Source of the DNA: Candidatus Saccharimonadota bacterium
GTDB taxonomy: Bacteria; Patescibacteriota; Saccharimonadia; Saccharimonadales; JAXHMH01
Assembly (NCBI GenBank): GCA_034521515.1
Contig: JAXHMH010000002.1
Span: forward strand, 640,444 to 704,443
Length of the DNA: 64,000 nucleotides
Reading direction: 5' to 3'
The notes under the pieces were generated by a model, which did no database searches, had not been told where the DNA came from, and was given only the letters and a program-made list of their open reading frames with translations. Position 1 is the first letter of the stretch, and each line of letters opens with the position of its first letter. Positions 3,664 through 5,806 of this stretch are shown in pieces. Position numbers and translations under genes: made by a program.

Positions 3664-4254
3664 ATGAGTGAACGCCAACAAGATGATCTGGGTCAACCAA
3701 CCCACGATGTTTTACATAAAATAAACAATTCGCCCGAAGTAGTTCGCGGGATAACCGAAGAAACGGTGGAGGTTGTTGAGTCTATCGGTGGTATTTTGGT
3801 CAGTCAGTATGTCACACAAGAACGATACGAACACTTGGGATACCACACGCTGTTGGTGCATGGCTTACAAGCGTCTGATAAAGTTACGAATGTTATCTCG
3901 GATAGAATAGATAAAACATTGATTGCCAGAGGTCTTAATGTAGAAGAAACGGCTGTTAATCCGCAATGTGTTACAGAGGCGGACATTGTAGATTTCCACA
4001 ATAATCTTCCGCAAGATAGTCAGACTGTAGGGCATGCAGTAACGAAAGTATTCCGTATGCTGGCCAATCATCTAAGATTCGAAAACGAGGACGAGCTTGT
4101 CTACTACGGTAAAGAGAATATTATTTTTGGAATTAGATACCAATCGTTTTTAGATTTATGCCAAGAAATTAACCACGGCGAGCTAAAGGTTAAAGGTATT
4201 GCCGAGTGGGGTCAGGATTTTCTTCAAGAATTTTACAACCAGATAACCGACTAA
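3664..4254 (+). CDS. Hypothetical protein
   Basis: 196-aa ORF with no motif recognised. Confidence 0.45.
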   Translation: MSERQQDDLGQPTHDVLHKINNSPEVVRGITEETVEVVESIGGILVSQYVTQERYEHLGYHTLLVHGLQASDKVTNVISDRIDKTLIARGLNVEETAVNPQCVTEADIVDFHNNLPQDSQTVGHAVTKVFRMLANHLRFENEDELVYYGKENIIFGIRYQSFLDLCQEINHGELKVKGIAEWGQDFLQEFYNQITD

Positions 4255-4288
4255 CAGCGTGGTTCGTAAGGAGATCGGTATCTAAGTC

Positions 4289-4297
4289 TGCTATAAT
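4289..4297 (+). promoter_or_regulatory. Extended -10 promoter element (TGcTATAAT) upstream of the tRNA locus
   Basis: TGCTATAAT lies about 65 nt upstream of the tRNA-like 5' end at 4362. Confidence 0.3.
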
Positions 4298-4361
4298 TTG
4301 TTCGATTCGCAAAGAAGTAACTTAAGGAGTTAAAAGGAATTCTCGATCGAAAATACTTGGT

Positions 4362-4389
4362 GGGGCTATAGCTCAGTTGGCTAGAGCGG
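4362..4389 (+). tRNA. tRNA 5' half only (acceptor strand GGGGCTA plus a canonical D-arm); the body is interrupted
   Basis: GGGGCTA-TA-GCTC-AGTTGGCTA-GAGC-G matches the 5' part of tRNA-Ala-type genes. It is followed by a 14-bp palindrome, not an anticodon arm, so no valid cloverleaf can be drawn locally. Confidence 0.45.
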
Positions 4390-4407
4390 TCGCCGCGGCG
4401 ACAGGTC
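4390..4407. repeat. 18-bp direct repeat, copy 1 (TCGCCGCGGCGACAGGTC; contains the palindrome GTCGCCGCGGCGAC)
   Basis: An exact second copy lies at 4735-4752. Confidence 0.9.
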
Positions 4408-4410
4408 GAT

Positions 4411-4665
4411 AAGTATTACGTAGACGTACTAAAAAGTTTAAAGACTGGGCGCCTATACACGGGTTCTACAGTTGATGTTGCAAAAAGGCTGCACGAGCAT
4501 GACAATGGCAAGCCCAAGGCAACTAAATTCACAAGACCTTTTGAGCTTGTCTACAAAGAAAGCTATAATACACGGACAGAGGCCTACAGAAGAGAAATGT
4601 ACTTTAAGACGGGCAGAGGTCGTGAGGAGTTGAAACATATATTGGGGTCGTCGTATAACGGCTAG
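4411..4665 (+). CDS. GIY-YIG nuclease family ORF (small COG2827/UPF0213-like) with no canonical start codon
   Basis: Translation reads KYYVDVLKSLKTGRLYTGSTVDVAKRLHEHDNGK..FTRPFELVYKESYNTRTEAYRREMYFK..GREELKHIL. The frame is open from 4372, but there is no ATG, GTG, TTG or CTG between the upstream stop (4369) and the conserved YYV block. The 3' end overlaps tRNA-Ala. Confidence 0.6.
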   Translation, partial: KYYVDVLKSLKTGRLYTGSTVDVAKRLHEHDNGKPKATKFTRPFELVYKESYNTRTEAYRREMYFKTGRGREELKHILGSSYNG

Positions 4666-4718
4666 TATGCATCCATGGCATGGATGAGATGGGAGTTCGA
4701 TTCTCCCCGACTCCACCA
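4644..4718 (+). tRNA. tRNA-Ala (anticodon GGC), CCA encoded
   Basis: Hand fold: GGGGTCG/CGACTCC acceptor stem with G3:U70, D-loop AACGGCTA, anticodon arm CATCC-ATGGCAT-GGATG, T-arm GGGAG-TTCGATT-CTCCC, ending ACCA. Confidence 0.8.
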
Positions 4719-4734
4719 TTTTTAGCTATTGCGA

Positions 4735-4752
4735 TCGCCGCGGCGACAGGTC
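4735..4752. repeat. 18-bp direct repeat, copy 2
   Basis: Identical to 4390-4407. It is followed by AAGGGTTCG, which resembles the 5' half of a T-arm. Confidence 0.9.
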
Positions 4753-4821
4753 AAGGGTTCGCCATATCATGAGATATGGCGCCCTGTCGGCCGACAGGGC
4801 GAGTCCCTGTCGTCTCCACCA
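4753..4821 (+). other. Highly structured segment ending in a tRNA-like 3' terminus (T-arm-like hairpin plus CGTCTCC-A-CCA)
   Basis: Perfect hairpins are GCCATATC-ATGA-GATATGGC (4761-4780) and GCCCTGTCGG/CCGACAGGGC (4781-4800). An alternative pairing is GACAGGG-CGAGT-CCCTGTC (4793-4811), followed by TCTCCACCA. Confidence 0.5.
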
Positions 4822-4843
4822 TTTGATTGTTACAAAGGACGTT

Positions 4844-5806
4844 ATGGCAAAGGAGCATAGGAACTTCTTTGCTGATACAATAGACTTTATGAATAACAAA
4901 TCTCAGATTTTACCTCAAATTAGTAACATAACCGCTCGGGTGCTGCTAGTTATAGGTGTATGTGCATTTTTTATATCTGGCTTTCTCTGGTTTCAACATG
5001 TATATAGCAGCCCGCGTAACGTTTTCCTAGGTATGTTAGAAAATAGTTTTCAAACGTATGGTATAGGGCGTTCGGTGGAGCAGTCGGATGACTTTCAGTC
5101 GATAGACCAGACAATCCTACTACAAGCCTACCGACAACAGGCTGCCCGGTCGATTACAGATTTAACGTATCCCAACGACGAATCGGATGCGCATGTTGTA
5201 ACAGAGGCGGTGGGTACACCAAAAGAAGACCTTATTCGTTATCGAAGTATCGAAACCTCTGAAGTGGGAGCTGATAATCAACCGCTGGATTTTAGCGAGA
5301 CAATTGATGAGTGGGGTCGCGCTGAGTCATCCTCCGGGCAGACGGATGGTGAACTGTTCACGGAAGCAAGTTTAGGGATTGTACCTTTCGGAGTGTTGGC
5401 GCACGAAGATCGTCAGGAGTTAACACAAACTATAGCTAACCGCGATGTATTTCAAGTCGACTACGCTGATACCGAAAAGAGTCTCTGGGGATGGCGACCA
5501 CAGCTGACGTATACGGTAACCGTTACACCAGAAGATTACATTGTTATGCTCAAACAATTCGCTCAATCCGTAGAGCTTAACCATCTGGAGGATATTGACC
5601 CAGCTCAATTTAGCGACTCGCCGGACTTACAGTTTCAGATAACGGTTGATGTCTGGTCGCGGCAATTACGTGAACTTGTTTTCGTAGATTCCGGACGTAC
5701 AGAACGCTACAGTTCGCACGGTGCTTTGCTTCCGATTACCATACCCGATGCGGAAGAAACCATATCTGTTGATGAACTTCAGACACGCCTTCAGAGTGTC
5801 CAGTAA
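4844..5806 (+). CDS. Membrane-anchored hypothetical protein
   Basis: The ORF-track start (4769) lies inside the hairpin/tRNA-like region. ATG 4844 has AAGGA upstream, and a single N-terminal TM helix follows. Confidence 0.55.
   Translation: MAKEHRNFFADTIDFMNNKSQILPQISNITARVLLVIGVCAFFISGFLWFQHVYSSPRNVFLGMLENSFQTYGIGRSVEQSDDFQSIDQTILLQAYRQQAARSITDLTYPNDESDAHVVTEAVGTPKEDLIRYRSIETSEVGADNQPLDFSETIDEWGRAESSSGQTDGELFTEASLGIVPFGVLAHEDRQELTQTIANRDVFQVDYADTEKSLWGWRPQLTYTVTVTPEDYIVMLKQFAQSVELNHLEDIDPAQFSDSPDLQFQITVDVWSRQLRELVFVDSGRTERYSSHGALLPITIPDAEETISVDELQTRLQSVQ

Follow-up and report, generated by a model that had tools for sequence, protein, structure and literature searches.

How does a tRNA gene come to carry a short palindrome in place of its anticodon arm, followed by a reading frame for a GIY-YIG nuclease and then by a complete second tRNA gene? 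This question is raised by positions 4362-4821 of a 64,000-nucleotide (nt) stretch of contig JAXHMH010000002.1 from Candidatus Saccharimonadota, the whole of which is called the window hereafter. The original prediction, made from the letters of the window, had read the locus as a tRNA-derived gene interrupted by a GIY-YIG cassette with its own tRNA, and the layouts of relatives as well as cassette-free tRNA-Ala(GGC) sites agree with it. We consider that a selfish cassette which resides in tRNA genes has left an old and degenerating copy here, a reading to which we assign a probability of about 0.62. Such cassettes seem to be present in at least five bacterial phyla and are apparently undescribed; no description of GIY-YIG cassettes splitting tRNA genes was found in the literature, and none is given in a survey of tRNA introns in Patescibacteria (PMC13011429).

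The outer 5' part of the locus (Table 1) matches, at 27/27 nt, the tRNA-Ala(GGC) that is resident in L136, a relative without the cassette (related loci are cited by L numbers). Beyond nt 27, L136 continues into a normal anticodon arm (CTTGC CTGGCAG GCAAG), whereas the window continues into the palindrome. The tRNA 5' part, the palindrome and an 18-mer with exactly two copies, all of which had been predicted, were recovered in the sequence; the 18-mer, TCGCCGCGGCGACAGGTC, lies at 4390-4407 and 4735-4752, for a chance expectation of 0.02 even with up to three mismatches. It is contained in a longer direct repeat of 31 nt with 87% identity (4377-4407 versus 4722-4752), the left, less conserved portion of which is D-arm sequence. 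Between the two copies, the frame 4372-4665 encodes a GIY-YIG domain, the sole domain detected in its product (Pfam PF01541, E=1.1e-11; family hidden Markov model, E=1.5e-39), and no ATG, GTG, TTG or CTG is found between the in-frame stop at 4369-4371 and this domain, as had been stated for a frame without a possible start. The predicted tRNA-Ala(GGC) with G3:U70 was found by both ARAGORN and Rfam. It overlaps the last 22 nt of the open reading frame (ORF), so that the ORF stop, TAG at 4663-4665, is placed inside the tRNA D-loop.

The recurrence of this arrangement elsewhere carries the main argument. The 19-mer GTCGCCGYGGCGACAGGTC was scanned for in one genome per species; all motif counts are among the 120 stretches listed, with at least 120 in existence. 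Among these, 87 lie in a tRNA-derived context (54 in Verrucomicrobiota, 19 in Planctomycetota, 6 in Elusimicrobiota, 6 in Patescibacteria and 2 in Chloroflexota) and 33 are unrelated coding-sequence matches in GC-rich genomes. The motif replaces the anticodon arm in all of the tRNA-context stretches, at least 87 in number. A same-strand GIY gene encoding ~80 amino acids (aa) is present within 700 nt in 55/87 and a same-strand tRNA within 700 nt in 69/87, mostly tRNA-Pro with some Ala, Val, Gly and Arg, to which L130 and L131, two of the protein-first loci (those reached through homologous proteins, independently of the motif), add an Ile context; a tRNA or GIY gene is near none of the other matches (0/33). 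In Acidobacteriota, the 19-mer is found in a conserved coding stretch, with GGGGTTCTGGCAATATGCCGT before and TCGCAGGTTCC after the motif and no tRNA or GIY gene nearby (L012, L018, L020, L030, L043, L048, L070, L074, L082, L087, L088, L109, L111, L118 and L119), and this occurrence appears unrelated to the cassette.

Two layouts could be distinguished. In Patescibacteria and Elusimicrobiota, tRNA nt 1-26, the hairpin and AGGTC are followed by the GIY gene, an intact tRNA and, optionally, a D-arm remnant, hairpin, AGGTC, T-arm and acceptor strand. The layout of Verrucomicrobiota and Planctomycetota is mirrored: an intact tRNA-Pro and the GIY gene precede ~8 nt of D-arm, the hairpin, AGGTC, T-arm and acceptor strand, with an optional 5' half and hairpin upstream. 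In both layouts, the ORF stop is the D-loop TAG of the following tRNA piece. The full form common to both is thus a hairpin-tRNA that is split by a nuclease gene and a normal tRNA, in either order, and the window holds the full form of the Patescibacteria/Elusimicrobiota type. One half only is present in L131, L129, L073, L050, L034 and most tRNA-Pro loci.

A layout matching that of the window is found between ligA and a Mur ligase gene in L001, a metagenome-assembled genome (MAG) of Saccharibacteria, and in L004-L008; the closest homologues of the window protein are encoded at these loci. The order of parts in these relatives is a tRNA-Ala 5' part, GTCGCCG(C/T)GGCGAC with AGGTC, a spacer of 6-7 nt, the ATG of the GIY gene, tRNA-Ala(GGC) and more tRNA-derived pieces, which end in CTCCACCA. 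Counterparts of the 5' arm upstream of the hairpin are present in L001, L129, L132, L050 and L073, and those of the second D-arm and hairpin copy in L001, L130 and L132. The hairpin adjoins the ORF in every protein-first locus, including those of Patescibacteria (L129 and L130-L133), which involve Ala, Ile and Val tRNAs. Its stem, GTCGCC/GGCGAC, is invariant in the protein-first loci, and its centre varies (CGCG, CGTG, CACG, CAAG or TAA, with 20 extra bases once). The cleanest member is L132, in which the outer halves would form a complete cloverleaf, with 7/7 acceptor pairs, G3:U70, an intact T-arm, A73 and CCA, except for the anticodon arm, which is replaced by a stem of 5 bp and a loop of 4 nt; 6/7 outer acceptor pairs are retained in L001 and L004. 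Across 37 tRNA-Pro loci, the stretch resembling the neighbouring tRNA starts upstream of the hairpin, at a modal distance of 8 nt from it; in 31/37, T-arm and acceptor share at least 92% identity with that tRNA.

Absence of the cassette from comparable sites was also observed. No relatives of the upstream 196-aa protein were found in genome contigs, nor is this protein homologous to the 192-aa protein at the equivalent place in L001, and ligA served for synteny instead. The window ligA retrieved 65 related loci; ten relatives, with LigA ~64-72% identical, have a plain tRNA-Ala(GGC) no more than 3 kb from ligA and lack both GIY gene and hairpin, so that the empty sites which the original prediction had proposed to look for do exist. 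L130 and L131 carry the same nuclease upstream of accC. Their cassettes are identical at 367/369 positions (99.5%) between the first nt of the 5' arm and the last nt of tRNA-Ile, whereas the start of accC is identical at only 122/173 (70.5%) and the DNA upstream cannot be aligned; the optional 3' piece is present in L130 and not in L131. This comparison indicates that the cassette is transferred as a unit. In L129, the inner tRNA is one lineage-typical tRNA-Ala(GGC) and the 5' arm is of another type, which suggests that the arms of a cassette can be obtained from elsewhere. With respect to ligA and the Mur ligase gene, the entire cassette of L001 (4950-5503) is on the strand opposite to that of the cassettes in the window (4362-4821) and L004, indicating that the tRNA block is inverted in one lineage.

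The age and the decay of the window copy could be judged from the same relatives. The GIY ORF of the window is 71.6% identical in nt to that of L004 and 73.5% to that of L001, the two closest relatives with a cassette, and the corresponding values for ligA are 69.6% and 71.9%. Since the nuclease ORF is about as diverged as ligA, the cassette has been carried with the chromosome for a long time in this lineage and is now degenerating. The 5' arm with hairpin and AGGTC shows 84.4% and 95.6% identity, respectively, and the inner tRNA 100% and 77.1%. The inner tRNA, which departs from lineage-typical tRNA-Ala(GGC) genes in its unusual D-arm and short variable region, is identical to that of L004 at 75/75 positions, although ligA and the GIY ORF are only ~70-72% identical; this perfect conservation argues for a functional, maintained gene.

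The product of the window ORF is 49-71% identical to intact homologues of 79-89 aa, a few others being longer where the gene call extends upstream into tRNA sequence; the homologues diverge to ~50% identity and stop after the catalytic domain. Where they have ATG, the window has AAG (4411-4413), and GAC (Asp) at 4423-4425 replaces the Tyr of their GIY motif (VYV), a column that is near-invariant in the homologue alignment A1, with Asp only in the window protein. In SsnA, of the Ssn family of GIY-YIG nucleases directed to hairpins in single-stranded DNA (ssDNA), replacement of the motif Tyr by Ala abolishes cutting and leaves binding (PMC11893778). From the motif, the window Asp would occupy the equivalent position, and the nuclease gene of the window is probably dead. 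Among solved structures, the UPF0213 proteins 1zg2 (E=1.8e-9) and 1ywl are the nearest, and a tblastn search of plasmids gave distant UPF0213-like matches only.

Decay and rearrangement are also common in the family. Approximately 13/55 GIY copies, among the matches listed, are frameshifted or truncated. Tandem arrays of 5' arms are found in L063 (five copies), L072, L096 and L019, tandem units of nuclease plus hairpin in L080, L093, L026 and L029, and hairpin pieces without a nuclease in L011, L014, L042, L053 and L062; the half forms, nuclease-less forms and arrays are explained by recombination among repeated tRNA segments. A miniature with an internal deletion occurs in L121 (7250-7400), where the first six codons of the ORF (ATGTTTTACGTTTATGTA) are fused to GAACG, the hairpin and the 3' half of a tRNA-Pro, and it is repeated in tandem with a period of 89 nt. 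An uninterrupted hairpin-tRNA serving as an empty attachment site was considered and rejected, with one plausible case among ~110 sites: on the minus strand of L071, GGGCGGTTAACTCAATGGTAGAGCG is followed by the palindrome, AGGTC, a shortened T region and ACCGCCCA, with 7/7 acceptor pairs.

Table 1. Parts of the tRNA locus, in positions of the window.
Feature	Positions	Strand	Basis or remark
tRNA-Ala 5' part (acceptor 5' strand, D-arm, G26), GGGGCTATAGCTCAGTTGGCTAGAGCG	4362-4388	+	Upstream tRNA-derived arm of the cassette
Hairpin motif, copy 1: 14-nt palindrome GTCGCCGCGGCGAC (4389-4402) and variable loop AGGTC	4389-4407	+	17-nt anticodon arm replaced
GIY-YIG ORF, probable pseudogene	4408-4665	+	Pfam and homologue alignment; open frame 4372-4665
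tRNA-Ala(GGC), intact, G3:U70, encoded CCA	4644-4718	+	ARAGORN; Rfam 53.4 bits
Second copy: D-arm 3' remnant TTAGCTATTGCGA, hairpin ATCGCCGCGGCGAC (first base altered; 4734-4747) and AGGTC	4722-4752	+	31-nt repeat
T-stem 5' strand and first four T-loop bases (AAGGG TTCG), AAGGGTTCG	4753-4761	+	Match to AGGTCAAGGGTTCGAATCCCTT in the inner tRNA-Ala of L001
T-loop insert, 40 nt, between T-loop nt 57 and 58: two hairpins	4760-4801	+	Hairpin search, ssDNA fold
T-loop end, T-stem 3' strand (one extra base), acceptor 3' strand CGTCTCC, discriminator A, CCA	4802-4821	+	Decayed downstream arm

The 3' piece of the window is a mosaic, with a T-stem like that of the inner tRNA of L001 and an acceptor strand like that of the window's own inner tRNA (4811-4824, 14 nt, 93% identical to the inner tRNA 3' end). 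This mosaic makeup explains why the outer halves fail to pair: the CGTCTCC-A-CCA end (4811-4821) pairs with the outer 5' strand at 5/7 positions, two of them as G-U. Both this pairing and the lack of a legal cloverleaf had been noted before and hold, as ARAGORN finds no tRNA in the joined halves; when the T-loop insert is removed as well, it returns no more than a 'tRNA-???' whose anticodon has 2 nt, and this only with the threshold relaxed, and a legal tRNA made of the outer halves was rejected. The hairpins and CCA end of the original prediction are likewise present, but some of its coordinates were off by one. The T-loop insert consists of a hairpin at 4760-4781 and a perfect 22-nt palindrome at 4780-4801, both with a CGCC...GGCG base, and an alternative hairpin can form at 4792-4812 (z=-5.2 for the ssDNA fold of 4722-4824).

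A two-hairpin T-loop insert after GGTTCG, between nt 57 and 58, is shared with two Elusimicrobiota, L039 and L055, where it lies in the piece after the inner tRNA-Ala. The stems of these two differ in a compensatory manner (GGCGCC/GGCGCC versus CCCGCC/GGCGGG, and CGTCCGCCA/TGGCGGACG versus CGAGCGCC/GGCGCTCG), and the CGCC...GGCG base is common to the insert hairpins of all three lineages and to the main palindrome. Hairpins of similar style (TCCGCC..GGCGGA, GTCCGCC..GACGGAC and CTCGCC..GGCGAG) are found in the D-loop, or in place of the T-arm, of tRNA-derived pieces in L004 (4941-4974), in L010, L028, L033, L041 and L114 (upstream of the motif) and in L021, L084 and L120 (downstream). With hairpins at the places of the D-loop, T-loop and T-arm, every loop of the tRNA scaffold can therefore bear one.

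Among known systems, the closest kind would be the Ssn family (clade cd10448), to which the cassette is likened through published features. Ssn proteins are GIY-YIG proteins of ~94 aa, the genes of which are flanked by oriented hairpin repeats of ~28 nt (NTS/SRM) in a repeat-gene-repeat layout termed insertion-sequence-like; they recognise the hairpin solely in single-stranded form, cleave ssDNA, not double-stranded DNA or RNA, a few bases upstream of it, and tolerate changes and extensions of the loop (PMC11893778). The cassette resembles them in its tiny single-domain GIY-YIG protein (79-89 aa; SsnA has 94 aa), in an oriented, hairpin-forming repeat of ~27-28 nt on one or both sides of the gene, in a stem of fixed sequence with a loop free to vary or expand, and in a junction ~8 nt upstream of the hairpin, compared with an Ssn cut a few nt upstream. 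It differs in a palindrome of 14 nt, below the 20-50 nt quoted for SRMs, in the tRNA scaffold that holds the hairpin at the place of the anticodon arm (tRNA is absent from the Ssn paper, PMC11893778), and in carrying an intact tRNA gene.

Other selfish elements share part of these features. Seg genes such as segB of phage T4, which encode free-standing homing endonucleases (PMC2330249, PMC13096335), are GIY-YIG nuclease genes among tRNA genes. Likeness also extends to presence/absence polymorphism and movement of the gene with flanking tRNA sequence, the evidence for both of which in the cassette comes from the family and not from the window copy, and to local amplification of tRNA segments. 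However, Seg proteins and I-TevI have ~200-250 aa with a separate DNA-binding domain, whereas the cassette proteins have the catalytic domain only, TIGR01453 matching their N-terminal ~40 residues alone at 17-25 bits against a cut-off of 56; the cassettes, moreover, are bacterial and chromosomal. To our knowledge, Seg genes have no equivalent of the hairpin that replaces the anticodon arm. Group I introns of tRNA genes (PMC3984707; for Patescibacteria, PMC13011429) are selfish insertions in the same type of gene and the same phylum, with low host cost and the ability to encode endonucleases, but the cassette has no ribozyme match, replaces the whole anticodon arm instead of interrupting its loop, and rescues the tRNA by a second DNA copy of the gene rather than by RNA splicing. 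IS200/IS605 insertion sequences and the REP/RAYT system are also small and have the same oriented hairpin, recognised as ssDNA, at their ends; they rely on an HUH tyrosine transposase, which is absent in the cassette, and have no tRNA scaffold.

These comparisons allow a mechanism to be proposed. The intact inner tRNA would supply the host, keeping the cost of carriage low. Because the ORF starts 6-12 nt past a tRNA-derived leader in most intact members, it is proposed that the nuclease gene has no promoter of its own and would be read from the tRNA transcription unit, ending on the D-loop TAG of the next tRNA piece. The lack of covariation in the stem, despite divergence of the proteins to ~50%, points to sequence-specific recognition of DNA by the protein rather than to an RNA structure. 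A unit of ~27 nt, in which the palindrome is preceded by ~8 nt from the 3' side of the D-arm and followed by AGGTC (GTAGAGCG-GTCGCCGCGGCGAC-AGGTC), is the candidate and, by analogy with Ssn, probably the recognition site of the nuclease. Native tRNA genes, with their D-arm 3' side, anticodon hairpin and AGGTC, could act as a look-alike site that would be recognised less well. Repair of a break in such a gene might then use a copy with the cassette as template, the tRNA-derived arms providing the homology, and the host would keep its tRNA, since a whole tRNA gene is contained in the cassette or regenerated by it. The half forms, nuclease-less forms and tandem arrays would result from recombination between repeated pieces of tRNA. 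We thus infer that movement proceeds by nuclease cutting and repair through tRNA-derived homology arms. The more general idea of a class of self-compensating mobile cassettes, each consisting of a mini-nuclease, a site mimicking tRNA positions ~19-48 and a spare tRNA, which copy themselves into tRNA genes, have spread through at least five phyla and move tRNA genes, is tentative, and we rate it slightly short of an even chance.

Several points weigh against the selfish-cassette reading of the window locus. No sign of recent movement into the window genome was found, the cassette being 72-74% and ligA 70-72% identical in nt to the relatives. Binding and cutting of the hairpin or of tRNA genes by the nuclease are predictions drawn from the Ssn analogy, and plain recombination among repeats could explain all derivative forms with no need of a nuclease. 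The published SRM consensus, HGTCWYN(0-2)YYVSBRHN(0-5)WNVSBRGN(0-2)RNCYNB, which matches NTS controls, is not matched in the 64-kb window or in six cassettes. Moreover, the cassette hairpin is low-copy, occurring twice in 64 kb, each time at this locus, and at one or two loci per MAG, compared with hundreds of copies of the Ssn-associated repeats in genomes of pathogenic Neisseria (PMC11893778). Finally, the compensatory changes in the T-loop hairpins of L039 and L055 suggest that the outer pieces may have a function beyond that of homology arms.

The last point also bears on a different explanation, namely that a domesticated hairpin-nuclease system is kept by the host to control recombination, transformation or copy number at tRNA loci. 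The perfect conservation of hairpin and variable loop across phyla, the maintained structure of the T-loop hairpins and the long vertical carriage at the ligA locus all speak for it, and precedents exist in Ssn, which modulates transformation (PMC11893778), and in SegB, which amplifies tRNA loci in T-even phages according to the abstract of PMC13096335. We nevertheless regard domestication as unlikely, given the patchy distribution among equally distant relatives, the broken state of about a quarter of the nuclease genes among the matches listed, that of the window included, the presence of an identical cassette in the diverged backgrounds of L130 and L131, and the restriction to one or two loci per genome instead of a genome-wide set of repeats. 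A split or intron-containing tRNA, in which the 345 nt between the repeats would be removed from the RNA and the outer halves joined into a tRNA-like, maybe anticodon-less and alanine-accepting molecule, draws its appeal from the perfect cloverleaf of L132, with a tetraloop hairpin for the anticodon arm, from the 6/7 acceptor pairs kept in L001 and L004, and from the peptidoglycan genes (Mur ligase and Ddl) nearby. However, no group I or group II intron or other Rfam family was matched in region 4250-4950 (Intron_gpI gave none at E<=10), where the inner tRNA is the sole match at gathering score, and six related cassettes gave only tRNA. The scores for tmRNA (RF00023, 34.9; RF04321, 23.5) lie below the gathering score of 47 and are both due to the inner tRNA-Ala, and ARAGORN found no tmRNA at the locus. 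The non-coding sequence is too short for a ribozyme core, the product would lack an anticodon, the acceptor strands of the window are mismatched and its T-loop carries the 40-nt insert, many members, listed above, have a single half, and one and the same hairpin is used in Pro, Ala, Val, Ile, Gly and Arg contexts. Removal of the interruption at the RNA level, which the original prediction had offered as an alternative, is thus very improbable here, and it is just as doubtful that intact members make the hairpin-tRNA as an anticodon-less RNA accepting alanine or proline.

The repeat itself has invited other interpretations. The original prediction took the 18-bp repeat for a target-site duplication, a view that had to be abandoned: the motif is the hairpin plus variable loop of the cassette family, it recurs with identical sequence at unrelated loci in five phyla, and it is part of a longer, older D-arm repeat. 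A common dispersed repeat, the possibility that would have spoken against insertion, was likewise ruled out for the window, where the only two copies belong to this locus. Integrating elements classically target tRNA genes, a portion of which is duplicated in the process. The locus might on this ground be the leftover attachment sites of an integrase-type element that once resided in a tRNA-Ala gene, with the repeat as the att core. This is hardly credible, because no integrase gene is nearby and the neighbours are housekeeping genes, just 327 bp separate the repeats, the repeat core is a foreign palindrome found across phyla and not host tRNA, and the repeat lies in mid-tRNA rather than at the 3' end. 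Tandem duplication and decay of ordinary tRNA-Ala genes, with an unrelated GIY-YIG gene between them by chance, would fit the frequency of tRNA fragments and duplicates in general and the clear decay of the outer pieces in the window. Its chances are nonetheless minimal, since the association of nuclease, hairpin and tRNA recurs in dozens of unrelated genomes in fixed order and strand, and is transferred as a unit, as in L130 and L131. A phage origin was also rejected: the sole motif match in viral contigs lies in unrelated coding sequence, and none was found there in a tRNA context.

Some further features of the locus and its relatives were observed. The neighbours in the window are ligA, genes for hypothetical proteins, a hydrolase gene and a Mur ligase gene, with Ddl also nearby. 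The next gene has its likely start at ATG 4846, a mechanical ORF call from 4769 overlapping the tRNA-like piece, and a weak sigma-70-like match (GCGACA-16-TATCAT) at 4743-4770, just ahead of this gene, shares sequence with the second hairpin copy and the first T-loop hairpin; a promoter region for the downstream gene might now be provided by the decayed 3' piece. In L004 (5309-5570), the inner tRNA-Ala(GGC) is followed by a further 5' fragment of tRNA-Ala (GGGGTATTAGCTCAGCTG), by tRNA-Ala(CGC), which is intact, and by the 3' fragment of a tRNA, which starts inside the anticodon loop, repeats CGCATTGCAG and ends in ATACTCCACCA; tRNA fragmentation seems to have a second layer here, one that lacks the palindrome. 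Small GIY-YIG ORFs of a more distant kind lie on the minus strand among tRNA genes or fragments in L128 (645-848 and 61-252), L052 (2807-2995) and L050 (4090-4323), in the contexts of tRNA-fMet, tRNA-Asn and a tRNA-Ala 3' remnant. The L128 ORF at 645-848 is placed between two partial copies of tRNA-fMet, each with a different hairpin (CCGGCAGCCGCCGG and CCCGCGCCTGCGGG). The tRNA-gene habitat may be a trait of a wider group of nucleases.

If the selfish-cassette reading is correct, it would explain a recurrent annotation puzzle in uncultured bacteria, in which tRNA halves, anticodon-less pieces and arrays of 5' halves lie beside small genes annotated as 'GIY-YIG nuclease family'. The recently discovered hairpin-directed mini-nucleases would gain a natural habitat, the tRNA gene, together with a candidate site of ~27 nt, which would be useful for ssDNA tools. 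The cost to the host would be limited in a manner different from that of group I introns, which mend the RNA, as the cassette brings or regenerates a second copy of the tRNA gene. In doing so, it would replace, duplicate and horizontally move tRNA genes as a side effect, and thus offer a route for the replacement of tRNA genes and their movement between genomes; the tRNA-Ala(GGC) of the window is atypical of its lineage, yet identical in a relative that is ~70% identical at ligA. The window copy is a decayed relic, yet it has pointed to what appears to be a coherent and widespread variant of GIY-YIG elements associated with hairpins, one that is apparently undescribed.

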